From the UHGV virus genome UHGV-1351982: a stretch of DNA of 64,000 nucleotides; one strand, written 5' to 3'. Of the stretch, positions 9,003 to 57,281 are shown piece after piece. The first letter of the stretch is position 1. Each line of letters opens with the position of its first letter. A program made the translations under genes and the position numbers. Source of the DNA: a virus. The notes under the pieces were generated by a model. That model did no database searches. It saw only the letters and a program-made list of their open reading frames with translations, and was not told the DNA's origin.

Positions 9003-10475
9003 ATGACCTTGTTTAACGTGCAAGCTGTAGTGTTGAAGATGCTTCTCGCTTCTGAACAGAAGCAAATAGCATTGGAAACATTCTCAAAACTGCATAAAGA
9101 TCATTTTAATGACGCTTTCTCCTCAATTTACCAAGCCGTCCAGAATTATTATAAGAAATATAACGCAATGCCGTCCATTGACGCACTGATGCTTGAGGCC
9201 AATAGGAACGCCCGCCTTTCTCAAGCTCTTGTCGTCTTAGCTAACACTCAAATTCCAGAAGTGAGCATGGAACAGGCGCTTGAAGTCCTAGAAGCCGAAT
9301 ATACACAGGATCTATTCCTGAAACTTCTAGAAACAGACGTGCTTCAAGATTTAACAATGCTGGATCAGGGAGAAATTCTCAACCGAGTTGCCTCCCTTCA
9401 CTTAAAATTAGAAGAGAAAGTAACGAATACTGGAAAGGTATTCAACGCAGACACAATGCGTATTTTCCAGAGAGAAGAAGATACCAAACTGAACTTGATC
9501 GCTCTTGGTATTTGTAATGAGTTCGACGCTCAAATTGGTTTAGCTCGCACAGAAACGTTACTGCTTGGTGGTTGGCGTGGTACTGGTAAATCCATTATCT
9601 GTTCAAACATACAGGTTCAGCAATATTTGAATGGAGACATTGCTCCATATTTCTCAATTGAGATGAAAGAGCACGAAGTGTTTAGACGTAATCTGGCTAT
9701 GTTAGCTGGAGTATCTGCATTAGCAATGCGTAATAACACTCTTGAAGGTGCTGCTCTGTTGAGATTAGCCAGAACTAGGGCTAGAATGTTTAATGGTGGT
9801 GAAGAGCTTTTCGATAACTTCGTTAAGCAATACACTATGGCTAAAATGAGTGACTTCTATGATATGGAAAGTAAACTCCTTGAAGGCTATGAGCTTCACA
9901 CTCCTATGATCATCGTTTACGATCCTGAACTGTCTATTACGACGGTTGACGTAGAATTAAATAAACTAGTTGCTAAATATGGTGATAAGGTTACTGTAGC
10001 TCTTCTAGACTATATTAACCAAACAAGACTTCCAGATTCAAAGACCATTGATATGTATGACTGGAAAGAACAGATGGTTGTTAGTTCATCTTTCAAATCT
10101 ATATGCCAGAAACATAACGTGGCTGGTGTTGCCCCTTACCAGATTGACCAAGATGGTAGAACGCGTATGTCTAAAGGGATTCTTGATTCCGCAGATATGG
10201 CTGCTAATCTTAACGCTGCAAAAGCTGATAATGGTCAAGGTGCTATTATGTTTGATTTCGTTAAGACTCGTTCCTCTGATAGTGTGAAGTTTATGCCTAA
10301 GATGAACTGGGAAACTCTACGAATGGATAACACTACCAACCTAGCAATGGAAGATATTGCGCAAATGGAAGCTGAGTTCGTTATTCCTATTGAAAAGGAT
10401 AAACCAGCTCAACCTAAACGTGCTAAGAAAGACAAAGCTGAAAATTCAACAGGTGAACAGGCCAGCGATATATGA
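9003..10475 (+). CDS. replicative DNA helicase (DnaB-like)
   Basis: Track ORF 8952-10475; ATG 9003 follows AAAGGAG and clears the upstream terminator hairpin; P-loop GGWRGTGKS; immediately precedes primase. Confidence 0.75.
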   Translation: MTLFNVQAVVLKMLLASEQKQIALETFSKLHKDHFNDAFSSIYQAVQNYYKKYNAMPSIDALMLEANRNARLSQALVVLANTQIPEVSMEQALEVLEAEYTQDLFLKLLETDVLQDLTMLDQGEILNRVASLHLKLEEKVTNTGKVFNADTMRIFQREEDTKLNLIALGICNEFDAQIGLARTETLLLGGWRGTGKSIICSNIQVQQYLNGDIAPYFSIEMKEHEVFRRNLAMLAGVSALAMRNNTLEGAALLRLARTRARMFNGGEELFDNFVKQYTMAKMSDFYDMESKLLEGYELHTPMIIVYDPELSITTVDVELNKLVAKYGDKVTVALLDYINQTRLPDSKTIDMYDWKEQMVVSSSFKSICQKHNVAGVAPYQIDQDGRTRMSKGILDSADMAANLNAAKADNGQGAIMFDFVKTRSSDSVKFMPKMNWETLRMDNTTNLAMEDIAQMEAEFVIPIEKDKPAQPKRAKKDKAENSTGEQASDI

Positions 10476-17139: not shown

Positions 17140-18117
17140 ATGAGAATACTATTTAGTGCTGATCATCATATCAAATTAGGACAAGATAAAGTTCCAAAGG
17201 AATGGCAGAAGCGTCGCTTCCTGATGCTAGGAGAACGGTTAAATGACATATTCCATAATCATAACTGTGATCTGCATATTGCTGGTGGTGATATTCTTGA
17301 TGTTGCCGACCCATCGTCGGAAGAAATAGAACTTCTTGAACAGTTCATGTCAAGACTTGACCATTCAGGCAAGATCTTCACTGGGAACCATGAAATGTTA
17401 ACTAAAACTATTTCATGTCTGTATCATTATGCAGGAGTTATTAATAAAGTAACAAACGGAAATTGGGAAGTCATTACTAAACCATATCGTTCTCCTGAAT
17501 TTGATATTATCCCTTATGATGAAATCCACAAACCAAAGTGGAAACCATCTGAATCAAAACTATGTTTCACGCATGTTCGTGGTGAAATCCCTCCACATGT
17601 AAAACCAGAGATTGATCTAACGAGGTATAACTGTTATGACACTGTAATTGCTGGCGATTTACATTCTTATACTAATAGTCAAACTGTTGGTTCTACTAGA
17701 CTTCTTTATCCAGGATCTCCATTAACTACATCGTTCCATAGAGAAAGAACAAAAGGTACAAATGGTTGTTTTATCATTGATACCGACACATTAAAAGTAG
17801 AATGGATTGAACTTGGTGACTTACCACAACTGATTCGTAAAACAATCGGAGTTGGTGAGGAAATGGAGCCTAGTGACTATGACCGTGTAATTTATGAAGT
17901 CACTGGTGACGTCGTTCAGTTAAAGTCTATTAAAGATTCCGATCTCTTAGATAAAAAGATTAACCATCGAGTTACTAAAGATGCTAAGTTAAATCTTGTT
18001 GATCTTGATATGTTAGGCGAGCTTGAGCTTTACTTCCGTGAAGTTGAAAAGCTGTCTCAAGACGACATTGATAGAATCTTGGCTAGAGCTGCTAAATATG
18101 TCAAAGATTATAATTAA
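17140..18117 (+). CDS. D12: SbcD/Mre11-like nuclease (T5 D12-like)
   Basis: 325 aa; calcineurin-type phosphoesterase motifs (SADHH, GGDILD, GNHE); followed by SbcC-like gene. Confidence 0.8.
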   Translation: MRILFSADHHIKLGQDKVPKEWQKRRFLMLGERLNDIFHNHNCDLHIAGGDILDVADPSSEEIELLEQFMSRLDHSGKIFTGNHEMLTKTISCLYHYAGVINKVTNGNWEVITKPYRSPEFDIIPYDEIHKPKWKPSESKLCFTHVRGEIPPHVKPEIDLTRYNCYDTVIAGDLHSYTNSQTVGSTRLLYPGSPLTTSFHRERTKGTNGCFIIDTDTLKVEWIELGDLPQLIRKTIGVGEEMEPSDYDRVIYEVTGDVVQLKSIKDSDLLDKKINHRVTKDAKLNLVDLDMLGELELYFREVEKLSQDDIDRILARAAKYVKDYN

Positions 18118-19936
18118 GACACTAAAATTCAGCAACGTTATGTCTTACGGTAAGGATATAGTAATTCATTTCGATAAGAATCCAGTTACTCAGTTAATCG
18201 GAGGAAACGGTCTAGGGAAGTCCACTATTGCTACTGTTATCGAGGAATTGTTCTATAACAAGAACTCACGTGGTATCAAGAAGGACGCCCTATTCTCTTG
18301 GGGTTCTCCGAAGAAAGAGTATGATATGCACGCTTACTTCTCGAAAGATGAAGATGAGTATGAGTTGCATAAAGTAGTTAAATCAACTGCTAAGGTTACA
18401 CTGATTAAGAATGGAGAAGATATCAGTGGACACACAGCAACTCAAACGTACAAGATGATTGAAGAGATTATGGGTGGTGACTTCCAAACATTCACTAAAC
18501 TGATCTATCAATCTGTTGGTTCCAATCTAGACTTCCTCAAAGCAACTGATGCAACACGTAAAGCTTTTCTTGTTAATCTGTTCAATCAGGAACAGTATAA
18601 AGAGATGTCAGAAACTATTAAGGCTGATCGTAAAGAAGTGGCAAGTACGTTAAGTAACTTGCAAGGCCAGATGGCCGTAATTACGAAGATCCTCAACGGA
18701 AAAGGCAATCTCGGAAGTTTACAAGAGCCAGTTGAAGTTCCAGAGTTTGATGAAGAACCATTAGCACAAGAACTTACTGAATCGAAAATTAAGGCGGCAT
18801 TAGCCAAGTCACAAGAGGCTAATATTACTAAACTCCGTAATTTGGACAAAGCTGTACAAGTTGCCGAACAATCTTTCGAGCCTTTCAAAAATTTCCCTGC
18901 GCCCACTGACCAATCTGAAGAGATCTCAAGTGTTACGCGTGACCTAACGATTGTTACCTCACGTGCGGGAGAAGTCAAGAAACGTTATCAGAAGTTTAAG
19001 CAAGAGGCTTCAAATACTGAATGTCCTACTTGTGGTACGCATCTTGATACAACTGCTGCTCAAAAAGCAATGGATATGGCTAGAACAGAATATGATCCTC
19101 TGTTTAAAGAGAAACAATCTCTTGAAGCTACATTGGAGCAGTTAAAGAAAGAACAACTCGAGTACACTGCGTATACTAGAGCTAAAGATACTTTGGATAG
19201 GGCAGTAGCAGCTAGAGACGAGTTCAAAAATTCAATGAGTGATGCTTCTTTTGAAGAACTCAATGTGCAAATCCTACAGGTGCAAATCCGACAATTAGAA
19301 CAGGAAATCGCAGATGGACGTTCTAAAGTTGCAATTGCCAAAGAGCATAATGCAAATGTCGAATTAGCCAATGCAAAATATAAGGCGAAATTAGAACAGA
19401 TTGAGAAAGCTGAGGCAGAAATGTCTGAGATAACGTCCAAACTGGATGGAGTATCAGAAGCTGTTGCTGATCTTGATATTCTGATCACTGCATTGAAAAA
19501 TCTGGTAGGATATAAATTAGAGCATAGTGTGAAAGTATTTGAGGAATTGATTAATAAATATCTTTCTATTATGACTGGTGGTAAGTTCGCACTTGGATTT
19601 GAGCTTGATGAAACGAAATTACAAGTAGTAATCTTCAATGATGGGAACCGTACCAGTATGGAGAACTGCTCTACTGGTCAGCAAAGTAGAATTAACCTAG
19701 CAACTCTGTTAGCTATTCGAATGCTGTTAACATCTATTAGTAAAGTTAATATTAATCTTCTGTTCCTTGACGAAGTTATTAGCTTTATTGATACGAAAGG
19801 ACTTGATACTCTCGTTGAATTATTAAATGAGGAAGATAGTCTGAATTCTATCATTGTTTCTCATGGGCATACGCATCCATTAGCCCATAAGATTACTGTC
19901 AAAAAAGATGCAGAAGGATTTTCCTACTTAGAATAA
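18098..19936 (+). CDS. D13: SbcC/Rad50-like ATPase (T5 D13-like)
   Basis: Track ORF 18023-19936, ATG at 18098; Walker A GGNGLGKST, long coiled coil, CPTCG zinc hook, Walker B LLFLDE. Confidence 0.8.
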   Translation: MSKIIIKTLKFSNVMSYGKDIVIHFDKNPVTQLIGGNGLGKSTIATVIEELFYNKNSRGIKKDALFSWGSPKKEYDMHAYFSKDEDEYELHKVVKSTAKVTLIKNGEDISGHTATQTYKMIEEIMGGDFQTFTKLIYQSVGSNLDFLKATDATRKAFLVNLFNQEQYKEMSETIKADRKEVASTLSNLQGQMAVITKILNGKGNLGSLQEPVEVPEFDEEPLAQELTESKIKAALAKSQEANITKLRNLDKAVQVAEQSFEPFKNFPAPTDQSEEISSVTRDLTIVTSRAGEVKKRYQKFKQEASNTECPTCGTHLDTTAAQKAMDMARTEYDPLFKEKQSLEATLEQLKKEQLEYTAYTRAKDTLDRAVAARDEFKNSMSDASFEELNVQILQVQIRQLEQEIADGRSKVAIAKEHNANVELANAKYKAKLEQIEKAEAEMSEITSKLDGVSEAVADLDILITALKNLVGYKLEHSVKVFEELINKYLSIMTGGKFALGFELDETKLQVVIFNDGNRTSMENCSTGQQSRINLATLLAIRMLLTSISKVNINLLFLDEVISFIDTKGLDTLVELLNEEDSLNSIIVSHGHTHPLAHKITVKKDAEGFSYLE

Positions 19937-40064: not shown

Positions 40065-40547
40065 TTAAGCCTCCAGCGCAGGGTTGATAGTTGTTACGCA
40101 CTCGTTAGAAGTAATAGAAGTAGATTTACTATCCGTTACAACAACTTTGTAAGTACCAGCATCTTCTGCAGCAGCTGTAGCTTTGTTGAAATTAGGGCCA
40201 GTAACACCACTAAGTGGAGAACCGTCTTTAGTCCAAGCATAAGTATATGGTGCAGTACCACCAGTAACTGTTACGCCCAGATTAATTGCTGCACCAGTAT
40301 CAACAGCTAGAGTTTTAGCCAGATTCTTCGTGAAAGCTAGAGCCGGAACAACCGGAGCAGTAACTTCGTATGCTTCTTTGAACTTATTCCAAACCTTGCG
40401 GTTGGTATGTGCAGTGGTCATTCCAAACTCTTTACGTAGAGTAGTGTAGTTTGGAACGAACTTGTGTGCTGCAACCGTAGCAAAGAAGATATGAGATTCT
40501 GGCAGCTTTTCACCAAAAATGGCCTTTAGACCATCATAATCAATCAT
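40065..40547 (-). CDS. capsid decoration protein (T5 pb10-like) with Ig-like domain
   Basis: 160 aa; Ig-like segment (VTGGTAPYTYAWTKDGSPLSG...AGTYKVVVTDS). Confidence 0.7.
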   Translation of the reverse strand: MIDYDGLKAIFGEKLPESHIFFATVAAHKFVPNYTTLRKEFGMTTAHTNRKVWNKFKEAYEVTAPVVPALAFTKNLAKTLAVDTGAAINLGVTVTGGTAPYTYAWTKDGSPLSGVTGPNFNKATAAAEDAGTYKVVVTDSKSTSITSNECVTTINPALEA

Positions 40548-41761
40548 TCTTTATCCCCATCGGCAGTGCCTTGCGGTCTACCACCTTCTTGACCAGATAC
40601 ACCTGTTGCAGAACCAGCAACGTTAGCAGGAATACGAATCTTATTCATCTGCTCATCATCTAAAGGTTCAAGGTTAAGCTCTTCACGAGCTTCGTTACCA
40701 GTCATGATACCGTTATTAACCAAAGAGGTTAAATGTTTAGCCTCAGCTTCTTTATCTGGCGTCAGTGCAGCTACTTCCTTAGTATTAGGAGTAACCTTGT
40801 AGCCAAAGAAGAAAGTAAGAGAACTAGTCAGCTTGTTCAGCATAGGAATGATAGTCATGTAATAGAACAATTCGATGTTTGGTCGAATGTTAGCATTATT
40901 ACCACCATCAAGTAACACTTGCGGAACACCAAAGGCAAGACAGATGGATTTATTAAATCCTTCGATATCTTCCTTGAAGTCTAGATCTTTAAAAGAGGAT
41001 ATTTGGGAGTACGGTTTTGCTTTCATACCACCATCTAGAATCAGGACAGTAGACTGACCAGTACTAGGATTATAATCGAGTTGTAATTCTTCTTGTTTAC
41101 GCTCACGCAATTTCTTGTTCAGGATTTCATCCGTCTCAAGAATAAGACCAATCACTGTGCCGTTATCGAGGAACTTCTCTTTAAAGTTAAGCATTTTAGA
41201 ACGCTTCTCAAGAGAGTCAATAACTGTAGCAACACGAGATTGTCCAGAAATTTGGGAGTTTGTGCCACACACGTAACTGTTATCCTTTATAAAGATAATC
41301 TCATCTACGCGATAGTCTATCTGGTTATTAAATATGAATTTTTTGATAAACTTATTGGCATCTGCCTCTACTTGCATTAGTGCAGCAGGGACATGGTAAA
41401 GTGCTGTGCCATCCCAATAGATGTATGCACAACCCTCAAAAAGTAGGTCAGTGACTACAAGTCTACGGAATGTGCTTATATCCATGAATGGATTAGGTCG
41501 TACATTTAAGAGAGTGTCTAGAGTCTTTGCCTTGACGCCATTAGCGTACGTGACAATATTATATTTATCTCCGACAGTATAAGAACACTCCGCCGCACTA
41601 TCGATAACCATGTTAGCAGTTCGGTTGAGAATCTCAATCTTACTGTAGGCTTGTCCAGTGGTAAATGGCTTACGGTTAGTGCGATGACTAACTGGTTCCA
41701 TGTCTCTTATAATACGTTGACCCGGATTTAGCTTTTCAGTAATCCAGCTTTTTAAACCCAT
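40544..41761 (-). CDS. portal protein (T5 pb7-like)
   Basis: 405 aa (T5 pb7 recalled as ~403 aa); position after terminase. Confidence 0.75.
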   Translation of the reverse strand: MGLKSWITEKLNPGQRIIRDMEPVSHRTNRKPFTTGQAYSKIEILNRTANMVIDSAAECSYTVGDKYNIVTYANGVKAKTLDTLLNVRPNPFMDISTFRRLVVTDLLFEGCAYIYWDGTALYHVPAALMQVEADANKFIKKFIFNNQIDYRVDEIIFIKDNSYVCGTNSQISGQSRVATVIDSLEKRSKMLNFKEKFLDNGTVIGLILETDEILNKKLRERKQEELQLDYNPSTGQSTVLILDGGMKAKPYSQISSFKDLDFKEDIEGFNKSICLAFGVPQVLLDGGNNANIRPNIELFYYMTIIPMLNKLTSSLTFFFGYKVTPNTKEVAALTPDKEAEAKHLTSLVNNGIMTGNEAREELNLEPLDDEQMNKIRIPANVAGSATGVSGQEGGRPQGTADGDKE

Positions 41762-42285
41762 TATAAGAACCTTGCGAATCCTGATTTAATTTCAGTCTTG
41801 ACTTGTGTCTTTTCTTGAGGATTCTGTAGCTTTTCCTTTTGTTTAAGAACCCATACCTTCTGCTTATTAGCAGAGAAAAGGGGAGGTTCTTTAGTGTACA
41901 CCTTATGTAATAGTTGGTGATGGTGGACACAAAGGGTAACAGTGTCATCTACTAGCTCATGCCTATATCTTTCATAGAATGCCGTCCTATTTGAGAGGAC
42001 TGTTTCTTCGTCAGTGAAATCCAACTGGAGTTCTTTAGCAAATTTTTTAACTAGTAGAGACACTGTATGGTAATGATGAAGCTCTAATTCTTCACCACAA
42101 CCACAGATTTCGCAGCGATCGGCTTTTTTATATTGACTTTTTATACCGTCTCGCATGAGTGATATAGCATCACGTTTATATTTTACATTTCCTGCCACAG
42201 TATTCTCCTCAACTGTATGAATATAGTATACATAATCATGTCGAATTTGTAAAGGGGATTTTAAAATGCAGGAATGGGATACCAA
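41761..42285 (-). CDS. HNH endonuclease
   Basis: 174 aa; Cys pairs and His-rich HNH core (CEICGCGEELELHHYH ... LCVHHHQLLH); sits between large terminase and portal. Confidence 0.6.
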   Translation of the reverse strand: MVSHSCILKSPLQIRHDYVYYIHTVEENTVAGNVKYKRDAISLMRDGIKSQYKKADRCEICGCGEELELHHYHTVSLLVKKFAKELQLDFTDEETVLSNRTAFYERYRHELVDDTVTLCVHHHQLLHKVYTKEPPLFSANKQKVWVLKQKEKLQNPQEKTQVKTEIKSGFARFL

Positions 42286-42312
42286 CTGAGTAGTATCCCA
42301 TCCTATACTTAT

Positions 42313-43629
42313 TTATTTCCCACGGGAAATTGAGTAAATTCCATAACGCAGTGCGTCACAAAGGTGAGAGTTCGCATCATGACGTGGTTTTTCACGTGAT
42401 AATTTCTCTTCGCCTTCCTGGAAGTCCCACTTGTAGTTCGCTAGGGCGTGGATCAATGAGGTACATGAAGCATCTACGATGATCTTGCCTTGCTGGAACA
42501 GTGCTTGCAGACATGCCAAACCATCTAGGACAGATTTCTTAGCAGGTGCAGAAGCGATTTCATGTTCATATGCTAAGTCCTGACGGAACTGAGCAGCAGC
42601 GGAGTCTACAAATATACGATCAACATTATAACGATCTATGCAGTGTTGGATATAAGCAGCGTGTTGAGCTGTAGTCTTTTCAGCTTGCTGATATTCTTCC
42701 AGTACGTAATAAACATCAGTATCATAGTGATACTTGATAGTAAGAACTGCTGTAGGGTCACGATAACCAACGTCGATACCAAGTAATGTTTCGAAAGCCT
42801 CATCATCTTTAAAGAAGTGGCGCATACCTTTGAGGTCTTTAACATGTTCGATAGCATTGAAGGTGTCAAAGATCTGACCTTCGAATACAGAGAAGTCAGC
42901 CTCATATTCTTGACGGAAGTAGTTTTTACTAACAGTACGACGCGCTTCTTCGATATCGTTCAGATCAGCACGTGGGTTATCACGATATGTACCATGAATA
43001 GATACCCAGTTAGGTAGCGTTTCGTTAAATCCTTTCTCATAGAACTCTTTAAACCAGTTACCACCACGAGGTGTGGAAATAAACAGAGCTTTAGAGTTTG
43101 GCTTATCTAGAGTAGGACGTAACTGAATATCGAAAGCTGCACCACCAACGTCGGAAATCGCTGCTTCGTCAAAAATGATGAAGTCATATGAACGACCAAC
43201 CGCGGAGTCAGCCTGCGCCGCAGAAGCCAGCTTAAAGAGAGAGCCGTTTGCTAGCTCAATCTCTTTATCTTTGGCGTTCTCACGTTCAGTCTGTAGTCCA
43301 TACTTCTTAATAAGACCACGAATCTGTGACCAACCGATGTTAGCCAGTGAGTAGTTAGGTGCAACTACCAGCACCTTCACATTGGGTTCCAGAAGTTTTA
43401 GGAACCCAAGTGTATATGCGATGAATGACTTACCTACACGACGTGATACACATGCAGTCACGAAGCGGTGTCTTGGGTCTTCCAGCGCATTAATGATTGC
43501 AATCTGAGGGGCATTAGGTGTAATTCCCTCTTGAGCTAGAATGCTAGAGACTGGCAGACGGAAGAATCGTTTGTCAATACCAAAGTCAATAACATCTGTG
43601 GTGTTAATATAGTCTCTAGAGACTTTCAT
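42313..43629 (-). CDS. terminase large subunit
   Basis: 438 aa; Walker A-like (VSRRVGKSF); nuclease-type acidic residues C-terminally; canonical position. Confidence 0.85.
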   Translation of the reverse strand: MKVSRDYINTTDVIDFGIDKRFFRLPVSSILAQEGITPNAPQIAIINALEDPRHRFVTACVSRRVGKSFIAYTLGFLKLLEPNVKVLVVAPNYSLANIGWSQIRGLIKKYGLQTERENAKDKEIELANGSLFKLASAAQADSAVGRSYDFIIFDEAAISDVGGAAFDIQLRPTLDKPNSKALFISTPRGGNWFKEFYEKGFNETLPNWVSIHGTYRDNPRADLNDIEEARRTVSKNYFRQEYEADFSVFEGQIFDTFNAIEHVKDLKGMRHFFKDDEAFETLLGIDVGYRDPTAVLTIKYHYDTDVYYVLEEYQQAEKTTAQHAAYIQHCIDRYNVDRIFVDSAAAQFRQDLAYEHEIASAPAKKSVLDGLACLQALFQQGKIIVDASCTSLIHALANYKWDFQEGEEKLSREKPRHDANSHLCDALRYGIYSISRGK

Positions 43630-44111
43630 TATCTCTTACCTCCTCCTGCTAGAGCGGTAATAAGATTCATATAGTTTTCGTCACCACTTCCAGCAATAAT
43701 ATTATTCTGAATATTAGTCTGGTTAGCCGGAGTACGGGCTGCTGCCTTCACTTTCTCCAGTTCTACCATCATTTTCATTTCTTCCATCTTCATCTTGTGC
43801 GCCTTCCAGAGAATATCCATGATATCCTGGTCAGAACCCATGCCAGTTTCTTCGAGTTCTTCCAACTTGCGCTTGATAACTTCATCAAGAACTCCGAATA
43901 AGCGGTCACGATTACGGAAGCCGCTTTCCATAAAGATATCGTTAAGATAGTTTTTAACTTCCCCACGATTCATTATATCACGGAATGCAATCTCGGACAT
44001 CCCAAGACTACGAGCAGCGGCAGGAACATCACTACCGCACTGTAAATAGGCTTCAATAACATCCATGCCTTCGGGAGACATGAGATCGGGAACTAATACA
44101 TCATTTGCCAT
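43629..44111 (-). CDS. terminase small subunit (putative)
   Basis: 160 aa; N-terminal HTH-like region; stop overlaps large terminase start. Confidence 0.6.
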
Positions 44112-44121
44112 ATATCCTCCT

Positions 44122-45903
44122 TTAGGTTAGGCGTTGAACTGTTACACGTAGTCTTGGCAAGAAAACAGCTGCCGCTTCTGCAGCGTGAATGATAACACCC
44201 AACTCAACGTTGCCATTACCAAGGTTTTTAATAGTATAAATATATCCGTTCCTACGGAAAGCAAACTTATCAGGCCTACTAGCCCAAGTTTGTGTATAAC
44301 TATAGGAAGTTGTACTGTGATAAGGTACTAGATATCCAGGTGGCAGAGTAAGAATCTGGTGGAATACACCATCACCAGCTGTATAACTTTGTTGACGTCT
44401 ACCTTGTACCTGCCAAGCGCTACCGCCGTAAGTACGCACAGGCATTCCAGCAGTATTAAGATTACCCATAATAACTTCAGTAGTTAATATAACGGTAGAG
44501 TGAGCATTAGGTAATCCTAACCAAACAGTGGCCAAAGGTGTATAGAAGTCACCAGCACCAGGGTAGGAAGGAGTTATATCATCACCAACATAAGTACTTG
44601 CAACGTTGCCTGGAAATAACCTGAGGGGTACAGTACTAGGACTCCACACAGGTCCATGTTCATTACCGATGGAGTTGGTATTAGTATCTACATACCATTG
44701 TTTACCTACACCAAATTTATATAAGCTAATTTGAGAAGCTGCACCCCCATAGTTAACAGGAGACCACAACCCGCCATTACTAGAGCCGATAAATTCACAT
44801 CGTGCAGTATTATCACCAAAAACTCCGGTATACGCAGCGTTATTACCAACATACTCCATATCAGGGCGATAGCCTAAGTTTCCAAAGGCATTCTGGTTAA
44901 TGAATTTATATCCTGTATTTGGTAAACTAACACCTTTAATAGTAAAGTTAGATGGAGATATTAGGATATCTGAACCGGTAAATGGATTACCAGAAACTCC
45001 CATACTACCATTAGAATAGCGCAGATTTAGCACATACCAAATAACCTTAGTTGGCGTAACGTTATACCAGTCCTGTACATATACCTTTCTAGCAGACTGA
45101 GCAGCCATATTAGAAGTAGAACCTCTACAAACATATATTTTTTTTGGATATGCAGGAGATTGGTAAAGAACGTTTACGTTATCTGGTAGTACACCTTTCT
45201 TACCTGCAAAGCCACGAATATTAGAATTACAAACATAAAACCAATCATGGCCTCTACCAGCAGAACCAACAGGCGCCTGCCAGTTAGGTTCCCAATAATC
45301 TGCGTTACCACCATCTAAAGGAACAGTAGAGACACCAGTTGGAAAACCCATAAGACTCCAGGCTCTGGCAATGGCTTCACCAGCAGAAACACCACCAGGT
45401 CTAAAGATCTGGAAACCAGAGGACTGTAGTAAACTGCCTCCAGAACCTTGCCGAGCAATAGATTCCTCATGACCAAGACCACCATTATAGATATAGGTAC
45501 CATGAGCTAAACTATCACCGATCGCAAAAGCAGATGTTACAGATAATTCAGCACCAGCACGTGGTTGGTCTTCAAAGAATGATAAGAACTGGCCAACCTG
45601 AGATTGTGTACCATTAAGGAAACCCCTATGAGTACCATTTATCTCAATAGCAGTTAATATAACTCTACCAGGATCATTGGATTTAATGTTTATAATATCC
45701 CAAGGCATCTGAGTAACAAAGTACCCATTACCTGCATCACCTAGGGCAGCCTCATAAGTCCCATCAACTAGGACGAAGGGCATATCTGAGTGGAAGATAC
45801 TATTAGTATTTGGAGAGTAGTGCTGATTTATATCACCACCATTAGCAGCGTTTAGAGATAATACAGTTTTACCATCACTAAATTTTCCTGCGAAAAAACT
45901 CAT
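44122..45903 (-). CDS. receptor-binding tail protein (T5 pb5-like)
   Basis: 593 aa; Gly/Asn/Ser-rich; N-terminus MSFFAGK... resembles what I recall of T5 pb5; divergent from a lipoprotein gene, as for oad/llp in T5. Confidence 0.6.
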
Positions 45904-45927
45904 ACAATCTCCTTCTTTAAAAATGTA

Positions 45928-45959
45928 TTTGCTTAGATCCCTCTATTTTGCTATAATAT
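45928..45959 (+). promoter_or_regulatory. sigma70-type promoter for the lipoprotein gene (TTGCTT -35, TGCTATAAT -10)
   Basis: Conserved downstream box ATATTTATAAATTAAACAGAGGA; lies in the divergent region shared with the receptor-binding gene. Confidence 0.65.
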
Positions 45960-45986
45960 ATTTATAAATTAAACAGAGGAACGATT

Positions 45987-46253
45987 ATGAAAAAGTTACT
46001 AGCTATCGTAGTTGCAGCAGTAGTGTTGACTGGTTGTGTGCCAGCTCCCGAGCCATTTTGTAGGGCATATGTGAAGTCTTATGGTCATGTTGGTGAAGAA
46101 CACTACGCTTTAGATATTCGAGAAGCACGTACTGTGGGCTACCGATTCCCTAAAACTCAGTTACGCACTAAGTTTGGGTGGTGGGATTTGTCACAGTTTG
46201 ATCTCAAATATGGCGATTGCAAATTTAAACTAGAACAATCTGGTCACTTGTAA
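45987..46253 (+). CDS. llp: lipoprotein, Llp-like (candidate receptor-blocking / superinfection-exclusion protein)
   Basis: 88 aa; signal peptide with lipobox (AVVLTG-C); conserved early promoter upstream; divergent from receptor-binding gene. Confidence 0.7.
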   Translation: MKKLLAIVVAAVVLTGCVPAPEPFCRAYVKSYGHVGEEHYALDIREARTVGYRFPKTQLRTKFGWWDLSQFDLKYGDCKFKLEQSGHL

Positions 46254-56398: not shown

Positions 56399-56468
56399 TG
56401 TGGATAACGCCTCAAAATCGCTAGGATTTTGTCAAGTCAAATCGTGCTGTTAATAAACCTGTGGATAA
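56399..56468. promoter_or_regulatory. DnaA boxes in inverse orientation (TGTGGATAA at 56399-56407 and 56460-56468)
   Basis: Two perfect reverse-complement DnaA 9-mers; with the LexA-like box they form an inverted copy of the 52.9-53.0 kb module. Confidence 0.6.
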
Positions 56469-56499
56469 CTTAAATAACAGTGTTTCTCACTTCGCTTTG

Positions 56500-56640
56500 T
56501 AAATGCGAGTCATTCTCATTATCATTCGCGTTTCCCTTCCTAAATGCAAATCATTCTCATTCGTATTCCGGTAGTCAAATGATAACTATTCTCATTCGCA
56601 TTCAACTTCTCAAATGCGAATCAATCTCATTATCATTCGC
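56500..56640. repeat. four tandem ~30-bp dyad-symmetric iteron-like repeats
   Basis: AAATGC(G/A)A(G/A)TCATTCTCATT(ATCATTCGC) units at about 56500, 56542, 56575 and 56610, each with an internal GCGA..TCATTCGC inverted repeat. Confidence 0.6.
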
Positions 56641-56680
56641 ATTTCGGCAGGCAGGGCATTTTCTATTTGCCCTGCGCTTT

Positions 56681-57281
56681 TGTGCAAATCCGACATTTGC
56701 CCCCACGGATTACGTGCCAGCGTGTATGTGCGAATCCGACAATTTTTGGTAGTGTGCAAATCCGACCCGAAATATTTTTATAGTGTGCGAATCCGACAAT
56801 GAATTTCCCTAAAAACTCCAGCAATCTCGAACTGCGATCGAATCCTGTGGGATATGCGCAAATCCGACATGAGTTTGCTAGGAGACAGATTTATGGTTTC
56901 AGGAATATTTTTGTGACTTCGATGAGAGGGTGTGTAATTGTGTGAGTTTGGGGAGAAGTGCGAATCCGATGAGGTTTTGGGAGGAACTATGAGAGGAGCA
57001 GCGGTGTTGGTGCTTTAGCACCGATTTGCTGCGTTTTTGGGGATAATGTGAGATGTTTTGGGATAATTGGGCGTGGGGTGAGATAAAGTGAAATTTTATT
57101 AGTTAAATGGGGCAAAATCGCTTGACAAGTGAAAATTCCTGTGTCCCTAAAAACTCAGGCAATCATGGGCCTTCGGCCCGAAATAATGCTGCTATTTTCA
57201 GGAGATTATGTGCTCATGAAAACTTAGGCAATTGTGCAAATCCGACCAGTTTTTAAACTTATATCAGTGTGCAAATCCGAT
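56681..57281. repeat. eight dispersed copies of the 13-mer GTGCRAATCCGA(C/T)
   Basis: Copies at about 56681, 56727, 56754, 56784, 56855, 56958, 57232 and 57266, in a region with no convincing ORF. Confidence 0.65.

Follow-up and report, generated by a model that had tools for sequence, protein, structure and literature searches.

A probable orthologue of the T5 nicking endonuclease SciA between the large terminase and portal genes of a phage of the EPS7 group

We analysed a 64,000-nt stretch of the virus genome UHGV-1351982 (hereafter the window), which megablast placed in the EPS7 group of T5-like phages (Epseptimavirus, Demerecviridae), with Salmonella phage KKP_3831 99.5% identical across the stretch that contains the sciA region. 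On the minus strand, terS is followed by terL, an ORF first called at 174 aa, and the genes for portal, decoration protein, prohead protease and major capsid protein (Table 1), and the T5 gene order holds for the remainder of the window. The window TerL is 96% identical to T5.155 and the portal protein 97% identical to T5.152. Just upstream of terS lie genes for a pb5-like receptor-binding protein and a divergently transcribed Llp-like lipoprotein, and between 47 and 52 kb there are ORFs whose sizes and order match T5 dmp, A1 and A2. The homologue of D13 (SbcC-like) is the plus-strand ORF 18023..19936.

Table 1. Features of the window that are discussed in the text. Positions are those of the window; a slash within a motif marks the nick.
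Feature	Position	Strand	Basis or remark
terS	43629..44111	-	phrog_3802, 2e-90
terL, large terminase subunit, upstream neighbour	42313..43629	-	Pfam Terminase_6N 1.2e-14 and Terminase_6C 2.3e-12
Terminator-like hairpin just past the terL stop	42272..42303	-	Scan: 13-pair stem, T-rich tail
5' extension of the 174-aa ORF, 29 codons from TTG	42199..42285	-	Conservation start, T5.153 length, DNA-level identity
Putative sigma-70-like promoter, upstream of sciA	42225..42253	-	TTTACA-17 nt-TATACT; consensus scan, 10/12 matches
sciA orthologue (probable), 145-aa site-specific nicking endonuclease	41761..42198	-	GTG start 42198; TAA stop 41763..41761
Portal protein, downstream neighbour	40544..41761	-	Pfam Phage_portal 2e-51; start overlaps sciA stop
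Predicted SciA target, terminal repeat/injection-stop region	56671..56678	-	5'-A/GCGCAGG; orthologue of T5 9748/9749
Predicted SciA target inside D13 (SbcC-like) gene	18896..18903	-	5'-G/GCGCAGG; orthologue of T5 78573/78574
Possible minor site in terL	43212..43219	-	G/GCGCAGGC, match to R/GCGCRGG
Plus-strand match	40075..40082	+	A/GCGCAGGG, same 9-mer as three T5 major sites

The first-pass annotation had placed a 174-aa ORF with a TTG start (41761..42285, minus strand) between terL and portal. A gene does exist there, but its 5' end was over-called. In an alignment of 39 diverse homologues, conservation begins at M-A-x-N, which is residue 30 of the 174-aa form, with K8 nearly invariant and R9 invariant (145-aa numbering). 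T5.153 (ORF142) and most database entries have 145 aa, and GAGGAG-N6-GTG at 42198 in the window stands at the exact place of GGAGGAG-N2-ATG in T5, so that the T5 gene starts with ATG and the window gene with GTG. We rejected the TTG start because the family conserves M1, A2, K8 and R9 (numbered as in the 145-aa form) and the GTG has a ribosome-binding site; the ATG at codon 15 that is used in some GenBank records, giving 131 aa, was rejected on the same grounds. At the other end, the TAA stop and the portal ATG share one base (TAATG), and the coordinates of the T5 record give the same 1-nt overlap. The overlapping stop and start described for this junction are thus confirmed on the portal side, whereas on the terL side there is a gap of 27 nt in the 174-aa reading and 114 nt with the 145-aa gene.

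The 87 nt that precede the GTG are most likely a non-coding leader. This segment is near-identical as DNA in T5 and in the phage TrudiRoth despite an insert of about 730 nt before sciA in both, and is therefore conserved as DNA rather than as part of the SciA protein. It carries both the putative promoter and the terminator-like hairpin (42303..42272). The promoter belongs to a block of conservation that the window, T5 and TrudiRoth share and that ends at the T5.154 insert, and the hairpin is identical in T5 and TrudiRoth.

The 145-aa protein is orthologous to T5.153, with 116/145 identical residues (80%) and no gaps in BLASTP (9e-90). A phmmer search of PDB sequences matched 9qgv_A and 9qgx_A, both named "Nicking endonuclease", over the full length (1.8e-75). 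The T5 protein is an endonuclease named SciA that was crystallised on GCGC DNA, as database records state: in the PDB titles the solved orthologue appears under the name SciA, as the "single-chain interruption" endonuclease of T5 in complex with GCGC DNA. The window protein has the same three-dimensional fold as this solved SciA. In a large protein search, all 93 homologue clusters, including the cluster of the window protein, carried a precomputed assignment to PF26848 (Phage_T5_Nicking_endo), and the UniRef or GenBank entries of several are named "Nicking (site-specific) endonuclease". When the 174-aa form and the 145-aa form were scanned against local copies of Pfam and NCBIfam, neither returned a family, with no Pfam match, PF01844 included, at E<=1; the local Pfam copy predates PF26848 and does not contain that model. 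Among the PHROGs, the best-supported family was phrog_3497 (unknown function, 1.5e-67) and the single HNH match was a weak one to phrog_8048 "HNH endonuclease" (2.2e-5). The phrog_3497 and PDB matches are far stronger than chance would give. A profile search of 1.84 billion representatives yielded no more than 164 clusters, which were nearly all short and of which 27 reached E<=1e-30; no link to a larger characterised family emerged.

Based on these matches, we conclude that the gene is the EPS7-lineage orthologue of T5 SciA, a divergent HNH/His-Me-finger endonuclease with nicking activity, and we put the probability of this reading at roughly 0.9. Since our literature search found no paper on SciA biochemistry or on the 9QGV and 9QGX structures, the function assigned here is based on PDB titles, on names in databases and on a single secondary citation (PMC3517423). 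One point against a firm assignment is the divergence of SciA from its T5 counterpart: identity is only 80%, compared with 96% for TerL and 97% for the portal protein, so that specificity could have drifted; the substitutions cluster in residues 21-37 and 64-91.

Eight residues (C29, C32, H41, H42, C90, H93, H94 and H98) are invariant in the 39 sequences, and all are present in the window protein, as they are in T5 SciA. The window protein also keeps E39 and R71, two further residues that are invariant in the family. The roles suggested for these residues draw on the alignment, the model and the titles of PDB entries. C29, C32, C90 and H93 probably form a structural zinc site, and H42, in the ELHH strand, is the likely catalytic histidine: in the solved T5 chains 9qgv_A and 9qgx_A, Q or A replaces the second His of ELHHYH, which is the H42 position. 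H94 and H98, on the following helix, are assumed to hold the catalytic metal by analogy with canonical HNH enzymes. In the structural model, strands at 38-42 and 86-90 and a helix at 91-101 are predicted to form a beta-beta-alpha core, the two strands of which are separated by a helical insert of about 43 aa.

Canonical HNH and His-Me finger enzymes (PF01844; EcoKMcrA, the Gme HNH nickase, PacI and Cap5) have a parallel layout, CxxC...HH...N...CxxCH...H, against CxxC...HH...CxxH-H...H in the window protein, and the beta-beta-alpha core predicted by the model would be a further resemblance. The window protein differs in falling below the Pfam HNH threshold and in its helical insertion between the strands; moreover, the fourth zinc ligand of SciA would be His rather than Cys and there is no conserved Asn at the usual position. 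The HNH label given in the first pass therefore needs qualification: it agrees with the invariant Cys/His pattern and the match to a solved endonuclease, but one weak PHROG match is all that the family scans provide for it. The description of the product as a small HNH-like endonuclease, of the His-Me finger type, at the terL/portal junction holds.

The T5 record lists four major single-chain interruptions, all on the minus strand, at 9748/9749, 22336/7, 39746/7 and 78573/78574. Three of these sites read A/GCGCAGGG and one reads G/GCGCGGGC. The nick consensus reported for T5 is R/GCGCRGG, and both sciA and sciB have been placed in the late region (PMC3517423). Both of the T5 major nick sites that fall inside the span of the window are conserved in it, on the same strand and in sequence and context. 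At the orthologue of T5 9748/9749, the 25 nt upstream are identical to T5 (GGGCAAATGTCGGATTTGCACAAAA/GCGCAGGGCAA), and the flank aligns to window positions 56399-56958. For the other, the 600-nt flank of T5 78573/78574 aligns at 89% to window positions 18605-19199 with the motif in register, within the D13 homologue. SciA of the window and of T5 thus share a target motif at two orthologous genome sites. T5 has the match in terL as well, at the corresponding position (107517, minus strand), but no nick is annotated there. The plus-strand match at 40075 lies on the strand that is not nicked in T5 and is not conserved at the homologous T5 position.

Counts of the motif gave no further guidance. 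RGCGCRGG was neither significantly enriched nor strand-biased in the window (4 found, 2.1 expected), and GCGC was not depleted, its 88 sites (O/E 0.86) being within the range of other 4-mer palindromes. Motif counts are therefore uninformative and only the orthology of individual sites is informative; with the motif not enriched and GCGC not specially avoided, the 8-mer is not the whole specificity. A full prediction of sites is held back by the same point, since GCGC is palindromic and common, a plus-strand copy of the 9-mer exists, and the known motif underspecifies both position and strand. In T5 as well, the un-nicked strand carries five copies of the consensus (PMC3517423).

We propose that sciA would be expressed together with the packaging and head genes, from its own promoter-like site after terL and with its stop overlapping the portal start. 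The enzyme would recognise GCGC-containing sites (T5 consensus 5'-Pu/GCGCPuGG) and cut one strand, 5' of GCGC, leaving the fixed single-strand interruptions that are typical of T5-like virion DNA. In the window, cuts would be expected on the minus strand at 56678/56677, in the terminal-repeat/injection-stop region, and at 18903/18902, in the D13 homologue. By analogy with T5, nicking of this phage's DNA at the predicted sites probably takes place late in infection.

In all members of the family, the C-terminus consists of a disordered linker and, at the very end, a short conserved peptide, which is SGFARFL in enterobacterial phages and L-S-x-F-K-V or GRFSRFKC elsewhere, and is sometimes duplicated. 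The crystal models, with coverage of 119-121 of 148 residues, appear to lack this tail. A six-frame translation of the window contained no other copy of an SGFARFL-type peptide. It is conceivable, though doubtful, that SciA acts while tethered to the packaging machinery, with the terminal peptide docking on terminase or portal, the products of the two flanking genes. If so, nicking would be tied to the direction in which the DNA is translocated. Tethering would then account for the cutting of one strand despite the palindromic GCGC and the 9-mers on the other strand (window 40075), and for a gene that never leaves the terL-portal junction.

The first-pass annotation had also suggested that the HNH protein might assist the terminase in packaging. 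An accessory nuclease or cofactor of the HK97 gp74 type, needed by the terminase to cut concatemers, would fit a gene that lies inside the module terS-terL-gene-portal and overlaps the portal start, and the small HNH-like proteins of this type in cos phages are likewise encoded in the packaging cluster. They differ from SciA in subfamily, in position within the module and in the type of DNA end. T5-like genomes have long direct terminal repeats, not cos ends, and gp74-type genes usually lie beside cos and terS, not between terL and portal; both points speak against such a cofactor, as do the position of the present gene on the portal side of terL and the lack of a canonical HNH Pfam match at the threshold given above. 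Phage HNH proteins encoded beside terminase genes do form a described class (PMC3592412), and the T5 nicks arise late in infection, so that the enzyme may act near the time of packaging (PMC3517423). However, T5 mutants that lack nicks are reported to be viable (Rogers et al. 1979, cited in PMC3517423), so that the enzyme would not be required for packaging; its product, the fixed nicks, is dispensable in T5. We consider a role as an obligatory terminase cofactor improbable, and the SciA reading is retained.

The other suggestion had been a free-standing homing endonuclease, that is, a selfish gene that recently entered the terL-portal junction and spreads by cutting relatives that lack it and copying itself in. 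This suggestion has some basis, since sciA encodes a small nuclease and stands alone within a tight junction, HNH homing endonucleases are abundant in T5-like genomes (T5 annotation; PMC10644984), and the locus does host a polymorphism of the homing type. In tblastn searches, however, homologues were found in 902 phage records, compared with 908 records that have a T5-type TerL, and the hosts include Salmonella, Escherichia, Klebsiella, Proteus, Aeromonas and Vibrio. Sporadic presence and absence among close relatives, as expected of a homing gene, was not seen in these records. In all the relatives that we checked, namely T5, TrudiRoth, Vibrio phage AG74, Proteus phage PM135 and metagenomic contigs, the gene lies directly upstream of portal; in a brine metagenome contig, among the most distant members, it overlaps the portal start. 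This position is kept in Tequintavirus, Epseptimavirus, Thalassavirus, Novosibvirus and metagenomic relatives. The near-equal record counts and the kept position identify a core gene and not a homing element.

Divergence and composition agree with this. SciA identity drops roughly in step with that of TerL across hosts (68% and 90%, respectively, in Klebsiella; 62% and 66% in Proteus; 45-48% and 52-59% in Vibrio phages). There was no compositional break at the gene borders in 300-nt windows (GC 0.36-0.39 over the gene and 0.38-0.47 in the flanks), and the borders are collinear in all relatives examined. Conservation of the position in relatives with no discontinuity of the flanking sequence is what the first-pass annotation had itself named as an argument against recent mobility. 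Salmonella phage SP_Thor, in whose record no more than the first 30 residues match, was considered as a natural sciA-less relative. We rejected it because the portal and major capsid genes are missing from that locus too, and the anomalous record looks defective. The gene that does occur sporadically at this junction encodes another protein, T5.154, which is absent from the window. The homing-endonuclease reading of sciA is thus largely refuted, and we regard it as very unlikely indeed.

T5.154 is a protein of 224 aa, a putative homing endonuclease of T5, TrudiRoth and others, which like sciA is encoded in the terL-portal junction of some relatives and is the kind of mobile gene that the first-pass annotation had in mind. 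It is unrelated to SciA and has a sporadic distribution. Its domains are T5orf172 (2.7e-8) and the GIY-YIG-related MUG113 (7.9e-9), with treble-clef zinc fingers. In T5 and TrudiRoth the gene lies between the promoter-like site and the sciA start, and full-length copies are present in about 110 records; a distant metagenomic lineage has a T5orf172-type gene in the same slot between terL and sciA. In the window, T5.154 is absent and the site is empty, the alignment being collinear up to TATACTATATTCAT and divergent from there.

A comparison of TrudiRoth with the window is informative here. The two are 89-100% identical in 150-nt windows over terS and terL (95.5% overall) and 99-100% identical over portal. 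By contrast, T5.154 and the first ~350 nt of sciA in TrudiRoth are T5-like (86-97% to T5), and are 75-84% identical to the window where sciA can be aligned, until window-type sequence returns near the 3' end of sciA. To judge from the sequences, this pattern looks like the co-conversion tract that accompanies a homing endonuclease. Where T5.154 is present, the T5-type 5' allele of sciA goes along with it, and co-conversion may account for the lower identity between the window and T5 in SciA (only 80%) than in TerL and portal (96-97%). The presence/absence polymorphism at the terL-portal junction belongs to T5.154 and not to sciA.

In conclusion, the gene between terL and portal is not a mobile gene of recent arrival, nor is it a novel type of packaging helper. 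It is already known as a core gene of T5-like phages and is routinely annotated; it has a Pfam family, its T5 orthologue is represented by two solved structures, and for learning what the nicks of T5-like phages are for, the window adds nothing beyond T5 itself. Our re-analysis corrects the start of the gene, which encodes 145 aa and not 174 aa, and predicts where the DNA of this phage should be nicked. The mobile element suspected at the junction is T5.154, for which this genome holds the empty, and probably cleavable, allele.

We found that the intergenic region between terL and sciA, the T5.153 orthologue predicted to encode a nicking endonuclease, is a recurrent insertion site for T5.154, a T5orf172/MUG113 and zinc-finger endonuclease gene. 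A T5.154-type gene is present in T5, in TrudiRoth and in a distant metagenomic lineage, and is absent from the window. The insert begins directly 3' of a promoter-like -10 region (…TATACTATATTCAT).

On comparison of the available sequences, sciA appears to exist as two allele types, that of the window and that of T5. The window type (at least 90% identity) was found in records free of the insert, from both Epseptimavirus and Tequintavirus, and the T5 type (about 80%) goes together with T5.154. Between the window and T5, SciA is 80% identical, and TerL and the portal protein are 96-97% identical. In TrudiRoth, a T5-type tract comprises T5.154 and the initial ~350 nt of sciA within flanks that are otherwise window-like; judged from this mosaic, the tract looks like the product of homing co-conversion.

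Coordinates of the features discussed. L002, L004 and L012 are comparison loci bearing the insert; L003 is the SP_Thor locus.
Feature	Location	Strand	Remark
terL-sciA intergenic region, insertion spot	window 42199-42312		
T5.154-type insert in relatives	L004 3774-4607; L002 1971-2645; L012 3442-4428		
sciA allele comparison	window 41850-42198 vs L002 2635-3000 and L004		
SciA C-terminal tail	window 41764-41844		residues ~119-145
A/GCGCAGGG match	window 40075-40082	+	exact match to 9-mer of three T5 major nick sites
G/GCGCAGGC match inside terL	window 43212-43219	- (nicked strand)	T5 equivalent 107517
SP_Thor anomalous locus	L003 (NC_103484, Salmonella phage SP_Thor) 1800-3100		
Receptor-binding-protein and lipoprotein ORFs	window 44122-46253		

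The C-terminal tail of SciA is predicted to be disordered, with pLDDT below 50 at residues 131-145, and is apparently unmodelled in the crystal structures, which cover 119-121 of 148 residues. Despite this disorder, it closes with a conserved peptide, SGFARFL, which is replaced by LSSFKV or GRFSRFKC according to lineage and is duplicated in some cases, with no second copy in the window. This terminal peptide could be a docking motif for some partner.

Two matches to the nick motif lie outside the nicks annotated in T5. The A/GCGCAGGG match, at the 3' terminus of the gene for the decoration protein, is on the strand not nicked in T5, and the homologous position of T5 lacks it; either this site is cut in the window phage, or the motif by itself is insufficient to define a site. 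The G/GCGCAGGC match is kept between the window and T5 and, since no nick is annotated there in T5, may represent a 'minor' nick site.

Database annotation of this region is uneven. In GenBank and UniRef the sciA product is given as 131, 145 or 174 aa and named 'hypothetical protein' or 'nicking endonuclease', and T5 record AY587007 gives the name SciB to a gene whose present annotation is small terminase. In SP_Thor, a terL-sized ORF labelled only 'hypothetical protein' is followed directly by decoration-protein and protease genes. With portal and apparently major capsid genes missing as well as sciA, and product names scrambled (terS, for example, is labelled ribonucleotide reductase), this record probably reflects an error of assembly or annotation rather than a natural phage without sciA.

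At 46-64 kb, the late region passes directly into ORFs matching T5 pre-early dmp, A1 and A2 in size and order (47-52 kb), followed by an injection-stop region at ~56.4-57 kb and more genes beyond; thus, the source record seems to be circularly permuted, with a single copy of the terminal repeat. A 593-aa receptor-binding-protein ORF, without a match in Pfam, occupies the T5 pb5/oad position and adjoins a divergently transcribed 88-aa lipoprotein (signal peptide plus Cys), the analogue of T5 Llp. By analogy, these two ORFs are the receptor-blocking pair usual in T5-like phages.
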